A DNA stretch of 64,000 nt. Origin: a virus. The stretch is taken from IMG/VR virus record IMGVR_UViG_3300038415_000126, positions 34,514 through 98,513 of that record; one strand, 5' to 3'. The notes beneath the pieces are model-generated. The model had not been told where the DNA came from. It did not search any database and saw only the letters and a program-made list of their open reading frames with translations. Below are positions 3,696 through 64,000 of this stretch, piece after piece. Each line of letters opens with the position of its first letter. Position 1 is the stretch's first letter. The translations under genes were made by a program, and so were the position numbers.

Positions 3696-4289
3696 TCACC
3701 CAGCGCCTTGTTCGTCCTCTTCAATGACCGCCGCGAGATGAACATCGCTATTAGTGACAGGATCATCGCCAGGACGTTCACACAGGCCAGGATCAGCTGC
3801 AGTCTTTCGTGGGTCATTGGCTTCAGGTACACCAGGGGGCCTCGCTCTGTCAACCATCTCGTACAGGTCGTACAGGTCCCGCGCGATAGCCCGTAGTGCG
3901 CAGACAGCCGGACTGAACCTCTCCGGTTCAGTCAAGATGCTGAAGAAGTTGTCATATTCGATGATTGACCGCTTGATTCGAACTAGCTCATGCCAGGGAT
4001 CGGTCTTCGTCCCAATCAAGCTCCTCAGGCTGTTGCACTGATCAACCCCCGGCCTAGCCAGGGAGCGAGCCCAAGTGTTCCGGCCCTCGACCGTGAAAAA
4101 GTACCTAGTCAGTAGTTCCCGTCTCTCTTCTATGGGGATGGCTTCCCCGTCCCTTGACATCTCCTGCAGCCGGGTTACCGTCAGGTCGAGGTACCATTGG
4201 ACGCGAGCCCGGTGACCAGCATCCTCGACATCCTCCTCCTGAGTGACATCTTGGAGCTTATCCAGGTACCATTCCAGATCGACGGCCAT
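3696..4289 (-). CDS. Hypothetical protein, family A (WY..YFFTxEGR..LA.S..RP)
   Basis: Paralogous to 14549-15082 and 15091-15624. Confidence 0.7.
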   Translation of the reverse strand: MAVDLEWYLDKLQDVTQEEDVEDAGHRARVQWYLDLTVTRLQEMSRDGEAIPIEERRELLTRYFFTVEGRNTWARSLARPGVDQCNSLRSLIGTKTDPWHELVRIKRSIIEYDNFFSILTEPERFSPAVCALRAIARDLYDLYEMVDRARPPGVPEANDPRKTAADPGLCERPGDDPVTNSDVHLAAVIEEDEQGAG

Positions 4290-4291
4290 CG

Positions 4292-4900
4292 CTAGATCAC
4301 CCACGGACGTTCGTACCGTGATACCCGAGGGGGCCTAGGCTCACTTATCACACCCAAGCTCTTAGGTACCCATAGATCAGGGATGTCAGAGTAATGCATC
4401 GGAGTGCAGTGGAACTCAGGCTCGGGCTCGACCGTTGAATAGCCAAGGACCAGACTATACGACTTGCTATCGGCCAATGAAGCCTTGACTCCCGGCCTAG
4501 TAACAATGAACAAGGTCCCGCCAGGTATCAAAATCCCCTTGTCACCGAGGAATCTGGTGAGTTGATTTACCCGATTCCCCATAGTCCTCATTGGATCAAA
4601 CACACGCCCATTGTTCTTGAACCATCTGTCAGTGATCTTCAGAACAGGTAGAGTCAGCTTCAATGGCTCACTCAATGTCACGTGGTCCTGGCGCTCAAAG
4701 TGGAACTCAAACCGACCATTCTCAGTTTTATCCCACTTAGTATGCCACTTCTCACAAGTATCTTCCCAATTGACCAGTAGCCCACCCACTCCAACTGAAA
4801 CAACAGTATAGCTAGCAGCGGCCCGAGAGTACGGGACGACGCGCAAACCATCCAAGTTCTCCGAGGTCTCGTACCACTTGAGGTGGGTGGGTAAGGGCAT
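4292..4900 (-). CDS. Hypothetical protein with C-terminal tag PRVSRYERPWVI
   Basis: ORF end; start taken at ATG 4900. Confidence 0.75.
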   Translation of the reverse strand: MPLPTHLKWYETSENLDGLRVVPYSRAAASYTVVSVGVGGLLVNWEDTCEKWHTKWDKTENGRFEFHFERQDHVTLSEPLKLTLPVLKITDRWFKNNGRVFDPMRTMGNRVNQLTRFLGDKGILIPGGTLFIVTRPGVKASLADSKSYSLVLGYSTVEPEPEFHCTPMHYSDIPDLWVPKSLGVISEPRPPRVSRYERPWVI

Positions 4901-9382: not shown

Positions 9383-9852
9383 ACCAAGACACTAGCCTTG
9401 AGGAAGGTCTTCTCCGGACCCCACACGACCTCGTACAGCTCGTCAAAGCCTTCCGCCAGGGTTGGGGCAACGAACAACTTTGCCTTCGCTAGAATGCCCA
9501 CACGAGGTATCAAAGCCTTCCCGACCCTCCGTGAGTTGCGATCTAGTGACTGCTGGGTAGAGCACCTAAAGTGATACCCCACAACCCAGGCAGAGTACTC
9601 CCGGCCGATTTGTATCAGCTCAGACCGCTCTTCCAACGTCACATTCGTGTTGTCCACAACCACTGAGCGCCCAGCACTCAGATCTTCTCGGATGAGTTGC
9701 GCCTGCCGAGCCGACTTGGACACCCCGCTCTTCCGGTCTCGACCCATCATGTCCTTGCTCACGACACTATGCTTCGGGTACTCCGCCATCCGGAATGTAC
9801 TCTTCCCCGATGCTTGTAGGCCCACAAGTATGACTAGGTCCATTGAATTCAC
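9379..9852 (-). CDS. P-loop kinase (AAA_33 / polynucleotide kinase-like)
   Basis: Walker A GLQASGKST, VVVDNTN motif, adjacent to Thg1-like gene. Confidence 0.9.
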   Translation of the reverse strand: MNSMDLVILVGLQASGKSTFRMAEYPKHSVVSKDMMGRDRKSGVSKSARQAQLIREDLSAGRSVVVDNTNVTLEERSELIQIGREYSAWVVGYHFRCSTQQSLDRNSRRVGKALIPRVGILAKAKLFVAPTLAEGFDELYEVVWGPEKTFLKASVLV

Positions 9853-10619
9853 TCATCCGATCTAAGCACACCCAGACCGAGACACAACTTAGTCACGAGA
9901 CTAGCATATTCTGGCCCACGAGGGAGGTCTCGGTTTACATAGACCCTTCTCCTCAAAGCCATACTCGTCTCGTTCTTCTTGGGGTTGAACCCGTTCTTCT
10001 CGAAGTTCTCCCAGTAAATCCCGCAACCCCGCTTTTGCCATGCAGGAACGTTATTGAAGTTGATCCCGTGCTTGTGCAAGAGCTCGTTCTTCTCACTGAA
10101 GGTCTTGCCCTCAAGAGCTTTCGTCGCTTCCAAGGCGCTCTTGCCCTTGCCTCGAAGCGTCCAGTAGCACCACCCATTGAGGCAGCACCGGGAAGCATCC
10201 GACTGCCTCCATCTGAAGTAGTCGACCACGTCATCATTCGAAACCCCAACCCACACGCGACTATCAAAGTGAGCCGGATAACTCAGTTTGACTGAGAAAA
10301 TAGAACTTGCCACGCCCGCGGACACCGAAACCAGCTTCTCGATCTCTCGACCGAATAAGTCGGTATCACGGGGTAAGAGAACGCTGATCTCATCCGACTC
10401 CGTGAAGGCGTAGAGCCCACCCAGCTCGACTAGTAGGGCAAGAGCCGTCGCCACCATGTAGTCGTGGAACTTGTGGTCAAAGGGGTGCTCAAACACCTTG
10501 GTCAATCGAGTGAAGCTCCGTCCATCAACGCGAATAACCATCCAAGCACCGGGAAGGGCCGCCATCGAGTGGTAACACTCAAGTCGTCGCATCCTGTCTT
10601 CAAGGCTATCGGACTTCAT
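9849..10619 (-). CDS. thg1: tRNA(His) guanylyltransferase Thg1-like protein
   Basis: IRVDGRSF, ESDEIS, FDSR, YFRWRQ, KNELL..GINFN..PAWQKRG motifs. Confidence 0.93.
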   Translation of the reverse strand: MKSDSLEDRMRRLECYHSMAALPGAWMVIRVDGRSFTRLTKVFEHPFDHKFHDYMVATALALLVELGGLYAFTESDEISVLLPRDTDLFGREIEKLVSVSAGVASSIFSVKLSYPAHFDSRVWVGVSNDDVVDYFRWRQSDASRCCLNGWCYWTLRGKGKSALEATKALEGKTFSEKNELLHKHGINFNNVPAWQKRGCGIYWENFEKNGFNPKKNETSMALRRRVYVNRDLPRGPEYASLVTKLCLGLGVLRSDE

Positions 10620-13562: not shown

Positions 13563-14249
13563 ATGAGCACTGATCCGATCATCAAGGAGCTGGTCGAACG
13601 CGCCGAGCACATGCCCTCCCAAGGGGAGAACTGGCCAGCCTTCATTGATGCCCTCCGAGAGTCTGACTACGATGTCACGGGCCCTATCTATCAAGGGGGT
13701 CCTGGAAGCCTCACCAGAAGCATCTCAATCGCCCTCGGCCCTAAAAAGGACGAGAAGGTCAGTCTGACTCGGTTATTCCAAGAGTGGGATGATTACTACA
13801 AGCGCGACCAAGCCAAAAGGGTAAGGCAGCGCTACCTCGACTCGACCGTGGAAGTCATCTACCTCGACAAGAATGGTCGACTCAAGAAGCCTGAGCATAT
13901 CCCCAAAGAGGATGCCCACACTCCGTGGAAGCCCGGTTGCCACATCCAAGAGGAGGGGGCCCATGTCGAAGGCCGAGGATGGGACAACGACCAAGGAGCC
14001 ACCTTCGTCCTGAAGACCACCCCGATTGGGACCGAGACGCCTACGGGAACCATTGTGGGTAAGCGCAAGCTGAGTGGGACCGTCCAGTACCTCATCAAGC
14101 CCCGTAGTGGCCCAGCTGAGAAGAAGTACCTCGCGCGCCTCGAACTCGAATCACTCCAAACTCAGCTCAGAATCAACCTGGACTACATGAGCCCTGAGGA
14201 CATCCAGAAGACCCACGAGAGAATCGAAGTGCTCAAGCACAAGGTGTGA
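13563..14249 (+). CDS. Hypothetical protein
   Basis: 228 aa ORF; N-terminus MSTDPII weakly resembles the N-terminal tag. Confidence 0.7.
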   Translation: MSTDPIIKELVERAEHMPSQGENWPAFIDALRESDYDVTGPIYQGGPGSLTRSISIALGPKKDEKVSLTRLFQEWDDYYKRDQAKRVRQRYLDSTVEVIYLDKNGRLKKPEHIPKEDAHTPWKPGCHIQEEGAHVEGRGWDNDQGATFVLKTTPIGTETPTGTIVGKRKLSGTVQYLIKPRSGPAEKKYLARLELESLQTQLRINLDYMSPEDIQKTHERIEVLKHKV

Positions 14250-14548
14250 GGTAGCTAGTATGAACAGCGAGAGGCCCGCTTCGCTTGCTTCTCGCCTCTT
14301 TCCTTGAGCAGTTTTGCTAGATAGGACGTGCAATCTTTGCCGTAACTCGGTTTGCTCTTGCTCTTTTGGAACCCCTGGACGCTCTGAAACTCCCTCATGA
14401 ACTCATCAGGTTGAGCAATATAGCGACGCATCCACTCATTGAAGGCCCATTGCAGGTCACGAACGGTAAATATTGCGTCGGATACTGGGGTTGTTTTGAT
14501 CCTGGGTACCTTCGGCGCAGCTGTCCTTTTCACGGTCATGGCTACCAC

Positions 14549-15082
14549 CTACACCGATGGAGAGGACGTGTCGAGGGGTAATCGATCAGCCTCCGTCAGC
14601 GCCGTCCCCTGAATCACTTCGGATAGATCAAGCCCGTCACTCGCCTTCAAGGCATCCTTGTACAACGTGAACATATCCTGAATTATTGACCTGATCTCGA
14701 AGAAAGGCCCGGAAAACTGCTCTTCTTCAGGCATAACACTGATGAGGTTTTCATGATCAATGATAAGATCCTTGATCCCCTCAAGTACCCCACCCCACGA
14801 CCAATCAAGGCTCTCAGTGTGGGTATCGACTAGCTTCCGATAGTAGTTGTACCGAGCCAAACTCGGCCGAACCATACTCTGAATTAGCTTCTCCCGCCCC
14901 TGCTTAGTGAACAAGTAGTCAGAGTAAATCTTCCTCTTGACTTTATCCCAATGATCAGATGACCCAGGTTGCTTTTGCTTAGCTATAGTCAGCTCGATGT
15001 ACCACCAAATTCTATCCTCATTGGATATATTGCGAGGTTCGACAGGGCTCTCTACGGCTGATAGGGCGCTCTCAGTTGACAT
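14549..15082 (-). CDS. Hypothetical protein, family A
   Basis: KRKIYSDYLFTKQGREKLIQSMVRP; GGTGTA motif 9 nt upstream. Confidence 0.75.
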   Translation of the reverse strand: MSTESALSAVESPVEPRNISNEDRIWWYIELTIAKQKQPGSSDHWDKVKRKIYSDYLFTKQGREKLIQSMVRPSLARYNYYRKLVDTHTESLDWSWGGVLEGIKDLIIDHENLISVMPEEEQFSGPFFEIRSIIQDMFTLYKDALKASDGLDLSEVIQGTALTEADRLPLDTSSPSV

Positions 15083-15090
15083 AAAGCAAG

Positions 15091-15624
15091 CTACACCGGA
15101 GGTCCATCTTCGTCACTTGTCTGGGTCACCAGAAGCGGGGTCCCAACCCCAGGGATCTCCTCGTAAGGATCAAGCCCAGAAACCACTTCAATCACTTCCT
15201 CCAACAACGCGATTAGCCGTACCAAACCCGCCCGTACCTCGCATACAGCTGGAATGAACCGCTCACCGTCAGGGTAGATGCTGATGAAGTTCTCGTACTC
15301 GACAATCGCTTCTTGAAGGCCCTTCAACACCCGGTTCCAAGTCCAGTCTATCGGCTGAGCCCGGGTATCTAGGATCTCCCGGTAGTACTTGTACCGTACC
15401 TGTACCGGCTGAATCATCGACTGCGCGAACTTGTTCCGCCCATCTCGATTGAACAAGTACGCTGAGTAGATCTCGCGCTTCTGATCCGCTGTGATGTGCG
15501 ACGGCCCACCCTGCGAGATGACCCAGTTGATATACCACTTGATCCGAGCCCGTATGCCCGAGTCGTTGCAGTCGTCTTCTAGGGCCTCTATCTGCTTAAG
15601 ATATCACTCGACAATGAGAGGCAT
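15091..15624 (-). pseudogene. Family A paralog interrupted by in-frame TGA at codon 7
   Basis: MPLIVE*YLKQ aligns with MAVDLEWYLDK of 3696-4289; TGA at 15604-15606 replaces TGG. Confidence 0.7.
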
Positions 15625-16788
15625 GGTCAACCTTATTCGAGTACAGTGGCGATGTCCCTGAGCAGCTCCTCACCCTTGGCCGTCAGCCACGAGCACCGGA
15701 TAGTCGCCCCATGCTCGATGTAGTCTTGGTTGGTCGCCCACGACAGGAAGAACATCACCGGCAGGTCGTCATGGTTGGTAGTAGCCCACGTGGACTGCCC
15801 AACATGGAGCCGAAACATCTCGACGATGTACCGAAGGATTGCATCCGAGTCCCCGCAGTCACATAGAGGTAAGACACCTTGCTTGAGGTAGGCAGCTCGG
15901 GTCGCCCAAGCTACTCCATTTTCATCGTAGAACCCGTCATCACGGTCATAGACCAGCTTCTCAAGCATGACTGCCCTCTTCATCCCATGGCGCATAGTCA
16001 GACATCAGGACCGTCACCCCATGGGCGCCACACTCAATCGACACAGACCAAGCCCCCTCCACGTCCCCAAGCGTTATCTCCGTGGCCCTTGGATACGCCA
16101 CGTAGACCCGCCCTTCCCACCCAATAGCCACATAGTGATACCTCAGGCATTGATGCTCACAGGAACGATTAGGCGCCCGGATCTCGAACCGATGAGTCCC
16201 ACACTCCTCTTCAATAGGGAGTTCAGGCATCCGTTGGTTCATCTCCTCAAGATCTCTGAACCCATCAAACCGGCCCGAGAATACCCCACACTCAGGATGC
16301 CCCTCGCCCGTGAAACTATCCCCACAATCCAGCTCCACGACAAGCCGACGAGGGTACTGAACCGGGTCAATGACGAACCTGCCCGCAAGTTGAATCAGCA
16401 TTTACTTGATCCGTCCTATTACACCCCGACCACCAACCGTCGTGTGAGTCACCGTCTGGTCCCGGGCTATCTCCGGCGGCTGTGGCTCATCACAGAAAGG
16501 TGACGTCGCAAACGGATACTCCGGGACCGGGTCGTGAGTCGGCTGGGAGAGCTCCTCGGTGTCTTTCTCGTTGTCCATGGTCCAACTTACACCGAGGACC
16601 AGCCGTCTATCGGCTCCGTCACATACCGAACTACCTGATACACCCTCATCCGATACCCGCACTTGAGACACACCCAGGAACCCTTGAGGATAACCTCCTC
16701 CTCAGGTCTATTGGTCGGGTTCTTCCCACATTGTGGACACTTCGGATGCAAAGTGTTTGAGCAGCTCTGACGTGTATGCACTTGGAAC

Positions 16789-17352
16789 CTAGAACCGTGT
16801 CAATTGGAACTCACTCGGCGCCTGGTCCCGAGTCAGGTTCTCCTCACCCTCCGCCACGATGACAAACGTTTGCTGAGGTATCAAACGAGACGTGTGAACC
16901 GTCGCCCCCCAAATCTTGCCCTGTATCCCTTGTACCAAGGCTGAACTATCAGCTTCATGCTCGAAGATGTCATGACACAACTTGCGGAGATCCGCGCAAT
17001 TGTAGGCGTTCACCCAAATGTCGGTTACCTTCTTGTCCATCCTGTTCTTATTGACGAACGCAATCGAGAGGATATCCCGTGTTAAACAGGACGGTCGTTG
17101 AACCGCAAGCTCCACCTGTTCAACTGCCTCCAGCAATAGGTCGAAAGCCTTGTCACGAGCCGGATTGGCATGAACTTCTTGAGCTACTTCATTGGCCAAA
17201 GCCAGAAACTTACCCCTGATCCTATTGATGACTACAACCTGCTCATCCGTCAGAGCATTCTTCGGACCCAAGTAATGCGACATCTCTAAGTACGGCATAC
17301 AAACCCTTTCCAAACCACCTACACCGGGGATCAGAACCGTGTGGATACCCAT
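16789..17352 (-). CDS. Putative Acb2/Tad1-like hairpin fused to a major-capsid-like fragment
   Basis: N-half LTDEQ...IRGKFLALANEV...ARDKAFDLLLEAV; C-half VNAYNCADLRK...GIQGKIWGATVHTSRLIP; motif recognition only. Confidence 0.5.
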   Translation of the reverse strand: MGIHTVLIPGVGGLERVCMPYLEMSHYLGPKNALTDEQVVVINRIRGKFLALANEVAQEVHANPARDKAFDLLLEAVEQVELAVQRPSCLTRDILSIAFVNKNRMDKKVTDIWVNAYNCADLRKLCHDIFEHEADSSALVQGIQGKIWGATVHTSRLIPQQTFVIVAEGEENLTRDQAPSEFQLTRF

Positions 17353-17645
17353 GACCCACGATCCTCATCCGGGATCTCGATGTCACTCAAAAAAGTGCTT
17401 TCAGCGTCGGTGAAGAGGTTCTGTCCAGGAACCCCATACAACTGGTTGTATATCTCGGTGGCATGATCAAAGATCTTCCGCTCCTCAAGTGTCACCCCTT
17501 CTGAAGGTGTCTTTTTCTCCTTGGGCATCATCGCGAATAGCTGGTCAAAACAGGAGTACCACTCCAGAATCAACTTCGCTCGCTCTCGACCTAGTATTCT
17601 CGACCCCTGAGCTTGATTGTCCATACCACAAGTACACCGATGGGG

Positions 17646-18065
17646 TTAGATCACCGGATCCCGGTTGTATCTCGAAATCCGTACCCCAATATATCGTTCA
17701 GGCTCCGTAACTTGAACCGGCTCAACAGTATCCCCTGAATACCGAATAGTCACAACTGGCTCAAGCCGACTGGTTAGGTTTTCATACCAACCCGTAGCCT
17801 CTGGAAATGTGACTTCAACAGAACAAGGCCCAAACCCACTCTCCATCGTGAACCCAAATCGATTGAACCCCGTGAGTCGAGTCCCACCTATCCAAACTCG
17901 ACCCACAGATCTTGGACTCCCGTCACTATAGCCATACTCACCCTCAAGTACCTGCATCACAACAACTAAGTCGTTCGGCCCCAACTCGTGATAACCCCCA
18001 CGTAAGCCCCCACGCCCCTTGACCACAAACACTACGTCACTGTCATCCACTTCAATGGTAGGCAT
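17646..18065 (-). CDS. Hypothetical protein with C-terminal tag VRISRYNRDPVI
   Basis: ORF end. Confidence 0.75.
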   Translation of the reverse strand: MPTIEVDDSDVVFVVKGRGGLRGGYHELGPNDLVVVMQVLEGEYGYSDGSPRSVGRVWIGGTRLTGFNRFGFTMESGFGPCSVEVTFPEATGWYENLTSRLEPVVTIRYSGDTVEPVQVTEPERYIGVRISRYNRDPVI

Positions 18066-18066
18066 G

Positions 18067-18390
18067 TCAGATCACCGGCGACCTATCGTATCGACTCACT
18101 CAATGGATTGATGGGACTACCTCAGGGCTTGAACCCGTAACCGAGTACCCGAGCTGACTCACTAACCCACTAGGCCATTGAAGGGTAACTGTCCAAAGCT
18201 CAAGGTTACCGCGACCATAAACAACCTGAGTCGCTGCCACCATCATAGCTTGAAGATCTGACATACCAGGGTCAAGAGCAGAAAGTATCGAGTTCCACAG
18301 GTCCTCTGTCTCTTGGACATCGAGACCAGTAATTCTAGTCACCCGTACAGGGTTACCACCTTCACTAGCTTTTAGTGTTACTTCAATCAT
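18067..18390 (-). CDS. Hypothetical protein whose tag VSRYDRSPVI lies beyond an in-frame TGA
   Basis: ...PSIH*VSRYDRSPVI*; TGA at 18100-18102 sits where the tag has Arg (CGA). Confidence 0.65.
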
Positions 18391-18659
18391 ATTACCGGCT
18401 CCCGGTTGTACCGTGATACACGAATCATCGGCGTCCAGTCCAAACAATCGTCATGCGTGTTCGCCCGATACAACCGAATTACCGGGACCTTATTGGGATC
18501 CCCTGGCTTCTTCCACTCCCAGAGGATACCAACCGAATGCCCACGAAGGCAAGTCCCCTCCCACCCAAAGTCAGGGGACCGCTCTACCTCATCTCCAGTA
18601 GCCCCTCGACTCGGATACGTGGTCGGACACCACCGACAACCATCACAGGGGCGTGGCAT
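18387..18659 (-). CDS. Four-Cys family B protein with tag IRVSRYNREPVI
   Basis: CDGC...WEGTCLRG...C; paralog of 20448, 20760, 53224, 53451. Confidence 0.75.
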   Translation of the reverse strand: MPRPCDGCRWCPTTYPSRGATGDEVERSPDFGWEGTCLRGHSVGILWEWKKPGDPNKVPVIRLYRANTHDDCLDWTPMIRVSRYNREPVI

Positions 18660-19116
18660 CCGGGTCCGGCTCCCGTGTCCCCAACGACCAAAGCGACACT
18701 ATTCCCTCCAAGTACCACTCAACTTGATCCGCTGAGGCATCAATGATACCCAACCCACCCCTTCGAAACGGGCTTATAGTGATGTGAGCACAATACGAGG
18801 ACACCTTCCCGCAGATCTCACGAAAACTCTCCTCAAACTGACTATCGACCGAGTCAATAGTCAGTACCGTCACATGAGTCGAGCGCTCACCAATGAACAA
18901 CACATTGTGCAGTAGAAGACGCACATAGAGCTGCTCAGCTACCCAAAGGATCCGCTGATCATGGTCTTCATCCCAGATAACAGCGAAGTCGTGAAACTTC
19001 ATCCGCGGAACCCAAACCAACGCCCGTAGAACAGAGTAATGCGCCCCCTTGCCAAAATGGTCCGCCGGAGAGGGTTCATCGTACACGGTACTAAAAAACT
19101 CAGAGTATCTGTTCAT
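18643..19116 (-). CDS. Hypothetical protein
   Basis: 157 aa ORF in an operon. Confidence 0.7.
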   Translation of the reverse strand: MNRYSEFFSTVYDEPSPADHFGKGAHYSVLRALVWVPRMKFHDFAVIWDEDHDQRILWVAEQLYVRLLLHNVLFIGERSTHVTVLTIDSVDSQFEESFREICGKVSSYCAHITISPFRRGGLGIIDASADQVEWYLEGIVSLWSLGTREPDPDATPL

Positions 19117-19674
19117 GTAGGTGAGGATCCGATATAACTAGGCGAAATCAGGCCTGTATCAGAGCCTCATACGCTACTTGCTCGAATAATGCAACACGGG
19201 CTCCCCGAGAGTCGATTAGGGATACCCCTGCCTTGAAACCCAGACGGTCTAGCTCCTGAACCAAGGACCAGGATGGGCCCACCACCTTGGAGAGCGCTTC
19301 CACTACCGACTCCGCTCGAACCCCATCAACCGTGTCCCCAGGCTCCCCTACGCCCGCCCCAGGTAGACTAGGAGCCAAGTCCCACCACCATAGAGGGTCC
19401 CAGTCGTCGATGTGAGCATGGTCCTCAAACGAGGTCGTGATCATCCACGCATTCTTCGTCTCAACCTGCCCCTGCCCAACCCGATAGTTCACCCCTCCAG
19501 TAGGCCTGAGAATCAGTATGTTCGCTCGCTTGTTGATGTGATACCGAGGATCTTCGTTATGCCACATGAGGAGGGACTACACCGTGGATCGATTCTATGA
19601 CCCAATCCCCCCATGGTGGAATAGATACAATCGGCCAGAACGTTAGTGTCAGTTTAGTGTATACTTTTGAAGCC

Positions 19675-20445
19675 ATGCCAGAGGGTACCTTAGAGCAAGT
19701 CATTAGAAGAGTCAGAAGTCTCTACGACTTGGCTGATAACACGACCGAGCATGAGGCTTCCACTGCTATCGGGGCTGCCGAACGACTCATGCAGAAGTAT
19801 AGATTGACCCAGGTCGATCTCCTCCAGACCTACACTGTGGCGACCGAGATACCCTCTGAATGTGAATACCCAATTGAGTTTGCAGGTAGAATCCACCGCT
19901 GGAAGGGTCTGCTCATCCTGGACCTCGCCAAACAATACGGGTGCTCAATCTACTACCATACCCGCCGCCCGAAGGTAGGACCTAAACGAATTGAGGTTAG
20001 AGTAGTTGGCCTACCCTCTGATGTAGCCATGCTCAGGATACAGTACGACAGCATCAAACAACAGGTCAACAATCTCACTCGAATTAACACTAGAGGCCAG
20101 GGGATAAGAAACGCAGACAGTTACCGAAAAGGCCTCACAGACTCGATTCGCAGGGAACTGAAGGAACTAACTAATCAACTCAAACAAGAGTCATCGACTA
20201 CCGCCATAGTGTTGCTTGATAGCAGGCTTCCTAAAGCCAAGAAAGCCAGGGATGAGTTACACCCAGATCTGACCGATAGATGTACCTCGTTTTCAGAACC
20301 AGCTTCAAATGCCTACATCCAGGGTTGGACTGACGGTGACAAGATCCACCTCGGTCGTGAACTTCCAGATCAATCTAAACCTGGTGAACCAGTAGGGTAC
20401 CTTAGCTCCGATAGCCACTCTATGACTGAACCGCCTTCGGAGTAA
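19675..20445 (+). CDS. DUF2786-family protein
   Basis: IRRVRSLYDLA...EHEASTA...AERLMQKY at N-terminus; SYRKG and AY..G..DG at C-terminus. Confidence 0.8.
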   Translation: MPEGTLEQVIRRVRSLYDLADNTTEHEASTAIGAAERLMQKYRLTQVDLLQTYTVATEIPSECEYPIEFAGRIHRWKGLLILDLAKQYGCSIYYHTRRPKVGPKRIEVRVVGLPSDVAMLRIQYDSIKQQVNNLTRINTRGQGIRNADSYRKGLTDSIRRELKELTNQLKQESSTTAIVLLDSRLPKAKKARDELHPDLTDRCTSFSEPASNAYIQGWTDGDKIHLGRELPDQSKPGEPVGYLSSDSHSMTEPPSE

Positions 20446-20447
20446 CG

Positions 20448-20756
20448 TCAGATCACCGGCTTGCGAGCATACCTTGAAACCCGTGGCCCAAGGTATGGCT
20501 CCTCCCAGTCAGAACATATCATGGCTGGAGATCGATACAAGTGAATGGCCCTTTGATGGTCTATACCCCCAGTCTCATCAAGGTCAAAGCTCCAGGACAC
20601 CAACACCTCGTACCCACGAGCACAAGTCCCCCTCCAAGTATAAATCGAATCCGGCTCCCGACCTATCGCATCCACCCCAACAACACCCCTCCCAGGATAC
20701 ATCGAAGGACTGAATCGACACTTGTCACACGGTGCTGGCATCGGATCAGTTGGCAT
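20448..20756 (-). CDS. Four-Cys family B protein with tag PRVSRYARKPVI
   Basis: CDKC...WRGTCARG...C. Confidence 0.8.
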   Translation of the reverse strand: MPTDPMPAPCDKCRFSPSMYPGRGVVGVDAIGREPDSIYTWRGTCARGYEVLVSWSFDLDETGGIDHQRAIHLYRSPAMICSDWEEPYLGPRVSRYARKPVI

Positions 20757-20759
20757 AGA

Positions 20760-21065
20760 TCAAATCACAGGCTCCCTTGAGTAACGACTAACCCTCGGCC
20801 CGTCATATGGCTCTTCCCGGTCACCACACTCAGTCCAAAACGGTAACCGAAACATGTAAATGACCCGCTCATGATCCTCATTCCAAACCCATGTTATCGA
20901 CACCGAATGACCCCTACTACATGAATTTTCCCAGTCAAAGCCCCCATCTGACACCTGATCAACTCGCTCACCAAGATAGCCCTTCCCAGGATAGGTAGCA
21001 GGACTGTACCGACACCCGTCACAAGGTTGCAGCATGGATGAGTTGCTCATGAAAAACTTTGACAC
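20760..21065 (-). CDS. Four-Cys family B protein with tag PRVSRYSREPVI
   Basis: CDGC...WENSCSRG...C. Confidence 0.8.
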   Translation of the reverse strand: MSKFFMSNSSMLQPCDGCRYSPATYPGKGYLGERVDQVSDGGFDWENSCSRGHSVSITWVWNEDHERVIYMFRLPFWTECGDREEPYDGPRVSRYSREPVI

Positions 21066-21068
21066 CGG

Positions 21069-32314: not shown

Positions 32315-33124
32315 ATGGTAACAATCCCTGATGGTACATCGACAAGACAGCTCCGACTTGAAGGGATGCGAGCACGGTACCCTGACGTGGAATGCCCTAG
32401 GTGTAGTTATCGTGTTCAGAACCTGATTCGACACTTCAAGCAGAGTCACCCATCACACTTGGAGGAGGTCTACGCTCTTTGCTCGGCCAATGATGACCCA
32501 CAGGTCCTAGCCTTGAACCATAGGGTGTTACAGGAGAGGGCGGAGGTACATCGGACGTGCAAGTGGGATCCCATCATGTGTGTTGTGTACTTCGTTCAAG
32601 CAGGGTTGGCTGGTAGACCAATCAAGATTGGGTATGCTCAGGAGATGTGTCGGAGGGTAGTCCATCTTCAGCTTGGGTGTCCAGAGCCACTGGAGGTGTT
32701 ATTGGCAGTCGGAGGGGGTAGGGAGCTTGAGCAAGAGCTGCACCAGAGGTTTGCCCACCTGAGGATTCATCAGGAGTGGTTCCGCGTCGACCTTGACCTG
32801 ATGACTTGCATTCACGAGATGAGCCAGAACAACCCAACAGTTCCGATCCGCAAGAAAGGGGCAATGAATGTCTGGCCAAGATGGAGAAAACCAAAGCTCA
32901 CGTACGAGGAGTGTCGAGAGGTAGCTCAGCGGCTTGGGGTGACTACGGCGGACCATTGGATAATCTTACATCGGGCCGGGGAATTACCCCACGGAGCGAC
33001 TTGGAATCTTCCTCGAACGTATCCGAACGAGTGGCGGGGTTGGTCGGAGTTTCTTCACGGCAAGTCAGTCTTGCGACCACCGGGGCTGATGGGGCTTGAC
33101 CGAATGTTGAAGCTCCACCGGTGA
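32315..33124 (+). CDS. C2H2-like finger, T5orf172/GIY-YIG domain and integrase-repeat-like unit
   Basis: CPRC...HFKQSH; VYFVQAG...IKIGY...EQELHQRF...EWF; TYEEC...YPNEWRGWSEFL. Confidence 0.8.
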   Translation: MVTIPDGTSTRQLRLEGMRARYPDVECPRCSYRVQNLIRHFKQSHPSHLEEVYALCSANDDPQVLALNHRVLQERAEVHRTCKWDPIMCVVYFVQAGLAGRPIKIGYAQEMCRRVVHLQLGCPEPLEVLLAVGGGRELEQELHQRFAHLRIHQEWFRVDLDLMTCIHEMSQNNPTVPIRKKGAMNVWPRWRKPKLTYEECREVAQRLGVTTADHWIILHRAGELPHGATWNLPRTYPNEWRGWSEFLHGKSVLRPPGLMGLDRMLKLHR

Positions 33125-41558: not shown

Positions 41559-41939
41559 CTAGATCACTGGGTCCCGCCCATACCGACTACGCCTATTGGG
41601 CTCATCATCGGGATTCGTTTGGAAGTCGAGTTTGTCCAGAGACTCAAACTCGGCAAGTGTGTAGGATAATTCTAGGATCATGTCCTTGTTTGCCCGGATG
41701 GGCCTCAGCTCGTTAGTCCGGAAGGGCTCCTTGCGCCGGTAACCTTGATAGAATGCCACTCCGTTGAAGAAAAGCTCATCCGCAAACCCAATTCTGATCA
41801 ACGAGGGTTTCCCAACTACGACTTCGATAGCAACCCGGTTACTCACTTCTTTCCCAAAGTCCGTCAGGCTCAAGTACATGGTCTTTGGTTCGGTCTCCCC
41901 AACCGGTATGCAACCGATCACCCTGATTACCTTCGGCAT
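41559..41939 (-). CDS. Hypothetical protein with tag NRRSRYGRDPVI
   Basis: ORF end; GGTGTA 10 nt upstream of ATG 41939. Confidence 0.75.
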   Translation of the reverse strand: MPKVIRVIGCIPVGETEPKTMYLSLTDFGKEVSNRVAIEVVVGKPSLIRIGFADELFFNGVAFYQGYRRKEPFRTNELRPIRANKDMILELSYTLAEFESLDKLDFQTNPDDEPNRRSRYGRDPVI

Positions 41940-42502
41940 AGCACCCCTATACACCTAAACGGATAGTTAGTTGACACCTGGTTTATCCGTTCTCAACTCT
42001 TCTCAACTTGTCTGTGCTATAAACCATACGACCGGACAACTTCCAAAGTATGGTCATGGTGACTTTGGAGGTTAGGTGCAAAAACTAAGTCGCTCAACCC
42101 TTCTGTGCTCGATTGTGCTCTCCTGTGCAGTGCTGTGTCACCGGTATCTAAACCGCTGTCGGCTCTGTCATGGTGACAGTTAGGTTTTGACCAAACAAGA
42201 TTTCGAAGTTCTTATTTTCATAGTTTACCGGATAGGTTTCGCGTAGTAATGCCACGCGTGGTTGGACCGGTTCATGAGGTCAGCCTCGGCTATGGCGGCC
42301 TCGTAGGGTTTGGGTTCTGAGCTGGTCCACCTGGGATCATGCATGTGACCCTTGGGCTCGCAGAAGACTCCGTAGAGGCCCTCGGGGGCAGGTCTGGTTT
42401 CTGGGTTACTTTTGGCTATCTGTTCGGTTTCCATGCTATGAACTTAACACCGGGTGGTTGAAAATGGTATCTCTTTTGATCTATTAGTATCAAGTATCAA
42501 GT

Positions 42503-44197: not shown

Positions 44198-44805
44198 GTC
44201 TACCTGGTCTTGCCTTGGCGCATGCGCTCAGCTCGTTCTAGGTTGGGTTTGGTGGCTGGGAAGTAGCTGGGCATGAAGCGAAGAGCTCCCTTGCTGTAGC
44301 CGGCGATCTTGCCCGTAGTGCGGGACAAGGTCACACCGTTCTCAAGGCGGACCGTAGCGGCTGTAACCTCTATGACGACGTGTTCTCTGATCTCTCGAAC
44401 CAGAAAGCTCAGAAACTTGTCACCTATTTTTGCCCGATTGTATGCGTAAACGTCAGTTGCTTTCATGGCCCTACTGGATCACGGAGTTCTCTCACGAGAT
44501 CTACTACCCCGACCTCTTTGCTGTGGGGTTCGATGAGCTTTTTTTCGACTAGAGAGCCTAGTGCTAGAAGCACCGGGCGTTCTGGGGCTCCAAAGGTGGG
44601 ATCTCTGAAGAGTTGCATCAAGCTCTCATGACGTTGTGGACCTTTGGACAGGAGGATGAGTATCTTGGCTTCAAGGCGGTCATAATACAGGAGCTTGCCC
44701 TTGACGATTTTCAGTTCATCCTTGGTCTCTTGTTCGGTTGGCATCCGAGCAAAGTACCCCAATTTGATTGGAAAAGCGAGTGATTCGTAGTACGGTCCAG
44801 GGCCC

Positions 44806-45192
44806 ATGAGGACGAAGAAGCAGTACGTAGCGGCGATTCAGGAGCTGATGACCGGGGTCCCTCGGGCGTTGATAGAGGAAGTTCTGAAAGCTCAGGAGAG
44901 GGTGGTTCAAAGGGCGTTGAGCACTGGGCCGAAGGTGGGTCGAGTGATAACGGTACCTGGGGTAGTGACGATTTTTTCCACCCCCCAGCCTTGGCGGCCA
45001 GAACGTAGGGCTCGGAACCCGGCGACTGGTAAAATGATGGTGATACCGGCGAAGGCAGCTTCAGTGAAGTTGAAGACGAAAACTCCAGTTTCACTACGTC
45101 GAGCGGCGGGTGAGCGGATCATTGGTGACCCAGAACCAGAAGTTCTAAAGCCTCGAAGGCTATCGCGATATGAGAGGCCGCCGGTGATATGA
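44806..45192 (+). CDS. HU/IHF-family DNA-binding protein with tag RRLSRYERPPVI
   Basis: RRARNPATGKMMVIPAK beta-arm motif. Confidence 0.85.
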   Translation: MRTKKQYVAAIQELMTGVPRALIEEVLKAQERVVQRALSTGPKVGRVITVPGVVTIFSTPQPWRPERRARNPATGKMMVIPAKAASVKLKTKTPVSLRRAAGERIIGDPEPEVLKPRRLSRYERPPVI

Positions 45193-55280: not shown

Positions 55281-55784
55281 CTAGATCACGGGTTTGCGCT
55301 CGTAGCGCGAGATCCGCTTGATGGGCGGTTCCGGGGGCGGAGGTGGGCCTTCATAGATGGGTAAGCTCCACAATCTGCAGTCTACGGCTCGCAACCGACG
55401 ATATCCCTGGTCGAAACGTTCTCTGAAATATGGTTCAAGTAAATGGTTTGAGAAGGCTAGACCCACAGTAACCAAGGTCAAAGTATCTCGAATTGCGTGT
55501 GTCCTGATTACCCCGTAAAGGTGGCTTTCGAGACCCTCCTGAGACCCACACAAGACGAGGGCCTCAAGACGAGATTGGATCTGTTCGAGGATGTTTGGGT
55601 AGTCCTCTCCTACCTCTTCTTGAACCGAGAAAAGTGGAGTGATGACGTGGGACGCGCGCATAACTTCCAGGATGCTCTCGCCATCTTCGCCAATGATCCA
55701 GACTGGCTCACCTACCAATTTGGAGAACATTGGGAGTTCTTGGTCTTGCAGCTGCCACCAGGTGATTGGCCGAGGGCTTGGCAT
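55281..55784 (-). CDS. Hypothetical protein with tag KRISRYERKPVI; paralog of 63125-63596
   Basis: TWWQ....LP.F.K....PV...GE.G..I.EV shared; GGTGTA 8 nt upstream. Confidence 0.75.
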   Translation of the reverse strand: MPSPRPITWWQLQDQELPMFSKLVGEPVWIIGEDGESILEVMRASHVITPLFSVQEEVGEDYPNILEQIQSRLEALVLCGSQEGLESHLYGVIRTHAIRDTLTLVTVGLAFSNHLLEPYFRERFDQGYRRLRAVDCRLWSLPIYEGPPPPPEPPIKRISRYERKPVI

Positions 55785-55814
55785 ACTCAAAGTACACCAG
55801 AAGTCTGATTTAAG

Positions 55815-55843
55815 GTTGAGATCTGAGCACCTCGCGCGTAATA
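55815..55843 (+). promoter_or_regulatory. Class I promoter-like motif
   Basis: ATG 55850 lies 6 nt downstream. Confidence 0.8.
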
Positions 55844-55849
55844 CGTGAT

Positions 55850-56788
55850 ATGGCAAACGAAATCGGTTACAAGAAACTGAAGGACGAAACCTGGGGTCTC
55901 TCTGGAGTCAATCTAGTTCCTGGTACTACGGTTACAGTGACCAAGAAGTCAGGAGAAACCAAACAAGAGGTCGTAGGGGCCATCGTTTGGAAGAACAAGG
56001 CCGATGGTTTCTGTTTTGCCAAGATCGCTACATCGAGCCAAGCTCAGAGTCCAGCACCCAAAGCGGCCCCTAGGGCTCGTACTTCAACCCGAGGTACCTC
56101 GACTCGTCGCAGTCGTAGAAGCGGCAAGAAAGAGGGCGTCCAAGAGGGCAAGTACAGTTCTTCGCGCGAGGGTGATGAGGGTGATGAGGTAGGTCGAGTT
56201 CGCTACCTCAAAAGCCAAGGTGTCCGTATCCCCGTTGTGGTTGTAGGGTACGAAACCGGCTACTGTAACGAAGACGGATTGTCATTTGGACTACCCATGG
56301 ATGAGGGTTACTACACTACTTCGTGGTACCGTGATGCAACCGAAGAAGAAGCCACGGACCTAGCTAGTAGAGAGGCTGCCAAGATCTCGGCCAAGGAAAC
56401 CGCTGCGCGAGCTGCCAAGGAAGCTCTAGAGGCTGCCGAGAAGGCTGCGCGAGCACCACTCGAAGGTCTGATCAGAAGTGACTCTCTTGCTACCCCCAAG
56501 GGTACACGAACCTCAGTGGGTAACTTCAAGAACGATTACAGCCAGAACGTGTCTGTCACCAAGATTGAGTTGGAAGACGGACGAGTGGTCTACCACGAAG
56601 GCGTGTACATGTACGATGACAGCCGAGACTACATCTGGGCCACCCAAGAAGTACTCGCGAGCCTCTATGAGGAACGGTTGGCGGAGCACCCCATCAGTCT
56701 GGAAGAGGCCCAAGAGTACTTGACCAAGTACTCAGGTTGCTGCGGAGCTGACATTTACAAGTACGTTGTAGCTCGGACCACCATCTAA
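55850..56788 (+). CDS. Hypothetical multidomain protein
   Basis: 312 aa ORF, leaderless. Confidence 0.8.
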   Translation: MANEIGYKKLKDETWGLSGVNLVPGTTVTVTKKSGETKQEVVGAIVWKNKADGFCFAKIATSSQAQSPAPKAAPRARTSTRGTSTRRSRRSGKKEGVQEGKYSSSREGDEGDEVGRVRYLKSQGVRIPVVVVGYETGYCNEDGLSFGLPMDEGYYTTSWYRDATEEEATDLASREAAKISAKETAARAAKEALEAAEKAARAPLEGLIRSDSLATPKGTRTSVGNFKNDYSQNVSVTKIELEDGRVVYHEGVYMYDDSRDYIWATQEVLASLYEERLAEHPISLEEAQEYLTKYSGCCGADIYKYVVARTTI

Positions 56789-63124: not shown

Positions 63125-63596
63125 TCAGATCACCCAAGGGCGTTCGTAGCGTGACAATGGGCCAAGCCTAATCTCTCTTGGGAGACCCTTTTCAACACAT
63201 TCCCAGTGATCTAGAACATAGTACTTGGGTTGCCCGGTGTGGCTTATATCCGGTTGGAAGTCAGCAGCGATGAAGACCTGGGAGTACGCAACCCCTAGGA
63301 GAACGTCTTCCTTAGAGTACCGGATGACGCAGTTGAATACACCAGGTACCATGCTCTTAGACTTGGCGCATCGCGCATCCCAGCATCTCCGTGAGTTGGT
63401 AGTTGACCCTGGCGGGTGTAAAGGATGCTCGATTCGTAGCAGATAGTGGGAGTATCACCATAGTTCGGCTGACAACCTCGATGATGGCATCCCCATTCTC
63501 ACCTAACAGGATGACCGGAGATCTGTCCGGTTTCCCAAAGGTGGGTAGGAATCCCTCTTCTATTTGCCACCAGGTGACTACGGCCGATACTACCAT
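63125..63596 (-). pseudogene. Frameshift-split paralog of 55281-55784 with tag PLSRYERPWVI
   Basis: 63357-63596 matches the N-half and 63125-63352 the C-half, in different frames. Confidence 0.65.
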
Positions 63597-64000
63597 GGGA
63601 CTTCGTACCCGAATCCCAGCAATTTCTCAACCAGATTTACGAGCCGGTTCTTGACTTACCCCGAGGCGCGGGCGCGGGGAGAGGTTGTCCAAGTAGAATG
63701 CGTCACAGACCATATCATCCCACTCCTCTTGGGTCAGGCTCTCGTCGAAGGCCTGCAGGAGGCGTAAAGCTTGGCTCGGGGCGTACCCCACTTCCAGTAG
63801 GGTAAGAATGACAGTGGTTCTCTTGAGGAGGTCTCCGCTAAGAAAGTAGCTCCGGACTTGTTGAAGGGAGAACGGGAGCGGCTTGCGGAACTGGATACCA
63901 CTGTCCACGGTATTACCCCACCTTCTGTCGGTCCCAACTTGGATCGCGCTCGGACAGAGCTCGACAACGTATGGTAGCGGCCAGCATGTCCTGGATGTTT

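Follow-up and report, generated by a model that had tools for sequence, protein, structure and literature searches.

A stand-alone paralog of the A-domain of phage-G-type major capsid proteins in a megaphage genome fragment

Results

The locus and its gene model

The DNA analyzed here (the window) is a stretch of 64,000 nucleotides, which corresponds to the final 64 kb of the 98.5-kb IMG/VR record IMGVR_UViG_3300038415_000126. This record was rated 19% complete by CheckV which, at a length of 98.5 kb, indicates that it is a piece of a genome of about 500 kb. The open reading frame (ORF) under study, whose product is referred to as P0001, is located on the minus strand at positions 16789-17352 and encodes 187 aa; the residues quoted in the first-pass annotation were present in the ORF list and translation. 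Although the longest ORF reaches position 17352, the most likely coding sequence spans positions 16789-17298 (minus strand; start at M19, stop codon at 16789-16791). Indeed, the closest homologs (P0002, P0005, and P0006) start at the equivalent of M19 and a Shine-Dalgarno-like GGAAAGGG precedes the M19 ATG, so the product is most likely a protein of 169 aa. A model in which the upstream 97-aa ORF (17331-17624) and P0001 together form one frameshifted major capsid protein (MCP) of 280 aa was rejected, as the upstream ORF exhibited no similarity to MCPs and the homologs start at M19.

The P0001 locus is genuine DNA. Besides its probable source, at least six studies yielded metagenomes (peat, pond, and viral) that contain a 3.2-kb stretch around the gene; none of the public runs listed as containing it was an RNA data set. 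Single contigs of a variant with 97.6% identity covered the whole stretch, with no indel. Among the first 40 of the 79 variant sites listed, none was situated inside the P0001 gene. The closest relative, P0002, is 74% identical and was found on a 225-kb contig.

The gene belongs to a long, co-directional run of small genes on the minus strand, without functional annotation, which extends from about position 19567 down to 14255. Pfam and PHROGs searches over the ten neighbors of P0001 returned nothing informative, and no known defense or anti-defense gene was recognized among them. Directly downstream, at positions 16587-16781 (minus strand), we observed a gene for a 64-aa protein with four cysteines of the zinc-ribbon type, for which the zinc-ribbon matches were all sub-threshold.

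Elsewhere in the record, eleven ORFs whose bodies are mostly unrelated were found to share a common C-terminal peptide, R.[ST]RY.R.P[VI]I-COOH. Seven are located in the window, six of them on the minus strand (17649-18071, 18390-18698, 20451-20759, 20763-21068, 41562-41954, and 55284-55907) and one on the plus strand (44791-45189); the other four lie upstream of the window, on the minus strand (G000:C1, positions 13631-13936, 13879-14400, 15958-16266, and 16475-16786). The codons differ synonymously and the DNA following the stop codons is unrelated, which indicates a tag acting at the protein level rather than a DNA repeat. A role of this tag in docking, packaging, or targeting might be envisaged. 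In ten other megaphage genomes, SRYxRxPVI gave no significant match. Other genes of the window included those for a Thg1-like tRNA-His guanylyltransferase (9849-10619, minus strand; PF04446, E = 7.5e-28, and Thg1C), a glycosyltransferase matching the 'GT4-conflict' Pfam model PF20706 (61813-62913, plus strand; 27.1 bits versus a cutoff of 26), a DUF2786+DUF7168 protein (19597-20445, plus strand), and a T5orf172/MUG113 (GIY-YIG-like) protein (32315-33124, plus strand). No tRNA gene was found in the whole 64-kb window.

P0001 corresponds to the A-domain of a major capsid protein

As a single sequence, P0001 matched the MCP of Bacillus phage G (gp27; PDB 6wkk_A) with an E-value of 4.1e-6, aa 68-170 being aligned with MCP residues 132-234. 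A tblastn search also matched it to the 291-aa MCP of a 485-kb uncultured megaphage (E = 5e-9). The profile of a cleaned family alignment, from which MCP fragments had been removed (A8; 30 members including P0001), matched 6wkk_A with an E-value of 5.9e-26. When this alignment was compared, using hhalign, with a profile of 15 full-length megaphage MCPs, a probability of 99.8% was obtained (E = 2.9e-29), with residues 63-171 of P0001 corresponding to MCP residues 129-246. Overall, hhalign probabilities in the comparisons of the family with MCPs ranged from 99.8 to 99.9%. The homology concerns the A-domain of the phage-G type of MCP (phrog_2522 / PF05065), and 18 family members out of 36 matched phrog_2522.

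With the family alignment as input, AF2 modeled P0001 with a pLDDT of 92.5 and a pTM of 0.76; a model built from two sequences only had a pLDDT of 37 and was not usable. The predicted structure is characterized, from the N-terminus to the C-terminus, by a two-helix hairpin (aa 36-59 and 64-85) followed by an alpha/beta domain, the last strand of which is formed by the extreme C-terminus (aa 184-186). In a structure search (VIA), aa 88-187 superposed on the A-domains of HK97-fold capsids and encapsulins, with Z-scores of 8.0-8.9, and the alignments extended to the chain ends of the capsids (to residue 267 out of 268 in 9m66_A, 381 in 3qpr_A, and 340 out of 340 in 7sj5_A). The top Foldseek matches were HK97 capsids and phage G gp27 throughout, and a structure search of the ESM Atlas likewise returned capsid families; a feature search of this atlas yielded no usable match.

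The core of the A-domain, as delimited by sequence, profile, and structure matches, comprises aa 88-171 (16840-17091, minus strand). It carries a motif common to P0001 and megaphage MCPs, V..IWVNA..CADLRK...DIF..E....L.QGIQGKIWGA.V..SRLIP. The C-terminal strand, aa 181-187 ('EFQLTRF'; family consensus 'LVRL'), is encoded at positions 16792-16812 (minus strand) and was identified in both the AF2 model (strand 184-186, pLDDT of about 96) and the VIA alignments. In the MCP, the equivalent element is the last beta-strand, which runs back into the sheet of the A-domain.

P0001 does not possess a complete HK97 fold: the alignment spans only MCP residues ~129-246 and the last strand, the AF2 model exhibits neither an E-loop nor a P-sheet, and the protein is 169 aa long versus about 300 aa for the MCPs. 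Without N-arm, E-loop, and P-domain sheet, all of which it has lost, P0001 is unable to form a shell. P0001 is thus a stand-alone paralog of the A-domain of phage-G-type HK97 MCPs, with a complete sheet that includes the C-terminal strand. The first-pass annotation had likened the C-terminal half to the axial-domain segment of capsid proteins from large uncultured phages, and the profile match to phage G gp27, the hhalign comparison, and the structural superpositions confirm that likeness, at a level far above chance.

The N-terminal hairpin is not recognizable as a nucleotide sponge

The two-helix hairpin (aa 36-85; 17098-17247, minus strand) was defined from the AF2 model. Its second helix (aa 64-85) is already part of the MCP homology, which begins at aa 63-64 in the hhalign comparison. 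Helix 1 and the conserved FGPxxxLTxxQ motif that precedes it had no significant relative, and the N-terminal part alone gave no significant match to MCPs. We considered whether the whole hairpin could be a refolded spine helix of the MCP; comparisons with MCPs did not bear this out, with E-values of 0.68 (aa 19-66) and 0.068 (aa 19-90). The PxxPLTxxQ sequence of P0001 resembles 'PEIPLTQIK' of MCPs, which is a hint only.

The hairpin had initially been read as an Acb2/Tad1-type cyclic-nucleotide sponge fused to a capsid fragment. Some faint echoes of this family were indeed detected. The Pfam model PF24729 scored 13.4 bits against P0001 (E = 0.093), and among 36 family members, four had an E-value below 0.1 (best 0.0089). 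VIA superposed the hairpin on Acb2 homolog 43 (9ptq_A; Z = 7.6, 60 aa, rmsd 2.4) and on T4 Vs.4 (7uq2_A; Z = 7.2), two Acb2/Tad1 hairpin proteins appeared at ranks 45 and 49 of the BFVD structure matches, and a short local motif (kPhTeEkigkvNaIk) was reminiscent of NALTDEQVVVINRIR in T4 Vs.4. All sequence comparisons were sub-threshold, however: the gathering cutoff of PF24729 is 27 bits and was reached by none of the 36 members, the family profile matched 9ptq_A in the PDB with an E-value of 0.64-0.74, below designed helical hairpins, and hhalign of a family alignment (A2) against T4 Vs.4 gave a probability of 0.6% over 16 columns. Moreover, dozens of unrelated hairpins reached Z-scores of 6.8-8.5, so that the structural matches tied with them, and VIA warns that Z-scores below 13 are uninformative for long helices of this sort. 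The hairpin fold appears generic, and a sponge function very improbable. Nor is P0001 a fusion of two known modules, as had been proposed, because helix 2 lies within the MCP homology, which leaves only aa 19-62 with no significant relative.

A diverse and fast-evolving accessory family

In an exhaustive HMMER search, 149 representative clusters had E-values below 1e-3. The same hairpin and A-domain architecture, with a length of about 170 aa and conserved ends, was seen in about 50 of these; in about 80 others, the A-domain was placed behind other N-terminal parts or present as tandem repeats. Members of the hairpin and A-domain family share the FGPxxxLTxxQ motif, the two-helix hairpin, the A-domain motifs, an acidic linker, and a C-terminal 'W.P....LVRL', all of which were found in P0001. 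P0001 aligned from end to end with the 29 other members of alignment A8, in which V109, G142, P159, P179, and L184 are nearly invariant, and the MCP-type motifs RVxxVWMNA, ADLRKFGRD, GIxGxxWGA, and SRxIPxG are kept across the family. Two tandem A-domain modules were also observed in the representative proteins P0014 and P0019, as well as in 316-aa ORFs of two other megaphage records (G013:C1:57250-58068 and G015:C1:173893-174702; loci L110/L117 and L109/L116, respectively).

A locus search of viral and metagenome contigs using P0001 or a two-sequence alignment returned no match. A scan with a degenerate pattern derived from a five-row alignment returned 80 loci, all 80 of which were true MCPs of about 300 aa from very large phages. 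Through these MCP loci, 20 whole megaphage records (126-529 kb) were reached and then searched for short forms of the P0001 type. The MCP of about 300 aa was present in 20 records out of 20, and short forms in about 8. The short forms were located 70-120 kb from the MCP gene and were missing from four of the six records that were at least 90% complete. No conserved gene neighborhood was found around the short forms of six other records. The short forms thus do not follow the pattern of an MCP gene, i.e., one essential copy in the structural module. This agrees with the earlier view that the P0001 gene does not itself encode a capsid protein, as P0001 comprises the A-domain only and a separate MCP was present in all 20 megaphage records.

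The A-domain core is short, and its tree poorly resolved; 30 MCPs out of 31 grouped in one region of it. The MCPs of 12 megaphages were nearly identical, with terminal branches of at most 0.04, versus 0.3-1.3 for the short forms. From these sequence comparisons, the P0001 family appears to be an old, fast-evolving accessory paralog and not a recent pseudogene.

P0001 could alternatively be a functionless, decaying remnant of a duplicated capsid gene, given that it covers the MCP only in part and that MCP-like pieces are scattered over several ORFs of the record (see below). This explanation is largely refuted, and we give it very little credence: the family is large, with dozens of clusters at 50% identity that agree in length, ends, and motifs, AF2 predicts the fold confidently, and the reading frame is intact in both the 74%-identical homolog and the 97.6%-identical, indel-free strain variant.

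Possible pairing of P0001 with an MCP

When P0001 (aa 19-187) was co-folded with a megaphage MCP, a median ipSAE of 0.59 was obtained (0.59, 0.63, and 0.52 in the individual runs), compared with 0.00 for the best control. Contact agreement between runs was at least 89%, and the pLDDT of the partner was at least 82. The mark that was passed is reached by 58 out of 80 solved complexes and by 2 out of 110 mismatched pairs; at values of 0.60 or less, only 7 of the 80 solved complexes are found, together with both mismatches. The alignments supplied were ones built for this analysis, so these benchmark counts hold only roughly, and the MCP used was a stand-in, not the cognate one. Because HK97 capsomers are among the solved structures, the pass may also reflect memory of the likeness. 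The result was graded as weak support, and on this model, binding of P0001 to the MCP is possible.

Such binding is what would be expected from a capsid-associated factor, which docks into or onto MCP capsomers via the normal A-A contacts and acts in assembly. As such a factor, P0001 may be a minor subunit or a decorating one, may cap capsomers, may modulate capsid size or assembly, or may act as a dominant-negative protein against the capsid of a competing, related phage. Besides the co-folding result, the retention of the capsomer-forming motifs speaks for this explanation. The main point against it is that the gene is missing from four out of six complete megaphages that have the same highly conserved MCP, which indicates that genes of the P0001 type are not a required assembly or structural part. 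Furthermore, the gene is distant from the structural module, shows no synteny, and has a much higher rate of evolution than the MCP. A role in capsid docking or assembly is possible, and nearly as likely as the self-mimicry considered in the Discussion.

Other MCP-like segments in the same record

We compared a megaphage MCP with all ORFs of the 98.5-kb record using phmmer. No full MCP was found, the cognate MCP being located outside the record. This search revealed five further MCP-like pieces, each in a separate ORF.

Three of these resemble the N-arm of the MCP. The first (14549-15082, minus strand; 177 aa) contains an N-arm-like segment at aa ~47-81, which corresponds to MCP residues 7-41 (E = 4e-4 by phmmer). 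The second, a paralog, is situated at positions 15091-15603 (minus strand), with an open frame at 15094-15603 and a first canonical start, TTG, at 15456. The third (3696-4304, minus strand; 202 aa) was related to the other two in an all-versus-all blastp comparison, with E-values of 8e-22 and 1e-15 (alignment A5). The first two are adjacent and belong to the same minus-strand array as P0001, from which they lie 1.2-2.2 kb downstream. All are characterized by the motif K.IYS.YLFT..GR.K..QSM..P...RY.YY. In the reciprocal search, the A5 profile matched only the N-arm of the MCP, in 19 of the 20 megaphage records, and no member of the N-arm mimic family was seen in those 20 genomes.

In the second N-arm mimic, a 270-nt patch (15334-15604) contained 30 of the first 40 differences listed (out of 79) from the 97.6%-identical pond and viral-metagenome variant, with only 2 of them in the 99 nt that code for the MCP-like motif (15382-15480). 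The TTG codon at 15456 is situated inside the motif, yet the frame upstream of it aligns with the paralog.

The remaining two pieces resemble the E-loop. The first (55281-55856, minus strand; 191 aa) includes an E-loop-like segment at aa ~35-81, which corresponds to MCP residues 52-98 (E = 6e-6), and ends with the C-terminal tag SRYERKPVI. The second, a short paralog with an open frame of 89 aa (63360-63626, minus strand), matched the ORF at 55284-55907 with an E-value of 3e-9 by blastp and MCP residues 52-93 with an E-value of 7e-3. Their motif is WWQL.D..LP.F.K.....V...GE.GE.ILEV.....VI.PL. Reciprocally, the E-loop mimic matched the E-loop region of the MCP in 20 megaphage records out of 20, as well as one 162-aa homolog (G001:C1:366325-366654).

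The N-arm and the E-loop are the elements by which MCPs lock onto their neighbors, as established for HK97. Proteins that carry one of them could therefore dock on the lattice, which is a further point in favor of a capsid-associated factor.

These segments also bear on another explanation, namely re-use of the A-domain fold as a generic scaffold for a different activity, for instance the binding of a host protein unrelated to capsid sensing, in which case the likeness to the MCP would be purely historical. The module is found with many different N-terminal parts and in tandem repeats, and small A-domain-like proteins also occur in other phage groups (BFVD, ESM Atlas), as generic re-use would predict. 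We nevertheless consider it rather unlikely: RVxxVWMNA, ADLRKFGRD, GIxGxxWGA, and SRxIPxG are conserved beyond what is usually needed to maintain a fold, and the genome also carries mimics of other MCP segments.

Discussion

The fold of P0001 and its parent family were already known, whereas a stand-alone, self-folding A-domain family in megaphages is new to the literature searched. Whatever its function, an A-domain able to fold by itself adds a novel architecture to those of the HK97 fold, and its recognition corrects the likely mis-annotation of genes of the P0001 type as sponges or 'capsid fragments'.

Few triggers of bacterial immunity are as common as capsid proteins. MCPs are frequent triggers of defense systems (PMC13728456). 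The surface that is sensed has recently been assigned to the capsomer-forming face of the A-domain: a 2026 preprint reports that the sensors Avs7/8/10 bind this face of the MCP, and that Lit and CapRel read short MCP motifs. The A-domain motifs of true MCPs are retained throughout the P0001 family, so P0001 probably presents the same capsomer-forming face, as judged from its sequence.

We tentatively favor, at less than even confidence, the explanation that P0001 acts by self-mimicry against capsid sensors, either as a decoy or as a shield; its anti-sensor step is conjecture. By mimicking the capsomer-forming face, P0001 would serve as a counter-measure against host sensors of unassembled capsid protein. 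As a decoy, it would soak up the sensor; as a shield, it would bind MCP that has just been synthesized and cover its capsomer-forming face. Self-mimicry is favored because of the patchy distribution of the family, its fast evolution, and the presence of sibling mimics in the record. A decoy role is plausible for a protein that is accessory and fast-evolving, has N-arm and E-loop siblings, and copies the face reported as the target of Avs7/8/10. The co-folding result, obtained with a stand-in MCP, adds weak support. Several points argue against self-mimicry. A decoy that engages an activating sensor should set it off, unless oligomerization were blocked; the neighboring genes included no recognized defense or anti-defense gene; and the retention of the A-domain motifs could stem from fold stability alone.

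Sensors for short MCP motifs might be countered in a similar manner by the N-arm and E-loop mimics. In its broadest form, self-mimicry would involve a panel of small proteins, each a copy of one MCP element: P0001 for the A-domain, three paralogs for the N-arm, and two for the E-loop. As decoys or shields, these would blind host capsid sensors, both fold sensors of the Avs7/8/10 type and motif sensors of the CapRel/Lit type. We consider such a panel of decoys or shields rather unlikely. If true, the panel would represent a self-mimicry form of anti-defense. Neither a phage-encoded decoy that mimics the MCP nor a genome with separate copies of three MCP elements was found described in the literature searched. 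The P0001 family, which is widespread, is a cheaply testable candidate for the evasion of capsid sensing by very large phages, or for the regulation of giant-capsid assembly.

Comparison with known systems

The closest known relatives of P0001 are the MCP of phage G (gp27; 6WKK, phrog_2522) and the MCPs of about 300 aa from megaphages of 400-530 kb, to which it is homologous over the whole A-domain. Identity to single phage-G-type MCPs is 33-38% over about 80 aa, and the helices and strands, with the C-terminal strand among them, follow one another in the same order. Unlike these proteins, P0001 has no N-arm, E-loop, or P-domain beta-sheet (MCP residues ~1-125 and ~245-280), in place of which it carries a helical hairpin and the conserved N-terminal 'FGPxxxLT' motif. 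It also differs from them in being accessory, distant from the structural module, and fast-evolving.

The vertex protein gp24 of T4 offers a parallel, as it is likewise a capsid-protein paralog kept beside the true MCP (gp23) in a large phage. However, gp24 is a full-length paralog of gp23 with a complete HK97 fold and is a structural subunit of the penton, whereas the P0001 family has kept just the A-domain, and many related genomes can dispense with it.

With the Acb2/Tad1 domain (PF24729; T4 Vs.4, 7UQ2; homolog 43, 9PTQ), P0001 shares two long antiparallel helices of similar length and a similar short motif where helix 1 begins. It differs in falling under every sequence threshold, in a fold match no better than that to unrelated hairpins, and in the attachment of its hairpin to an A-domain of 100 aa. 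Finally, capsid-sensing immunity (Avs7/8/10, CapRel, Lit, and Thoeris ThsB), a possible target of P0001, senses the capsomer face of the A-domain or short MCP motifs, which are the same elements as those copied in the record described here.
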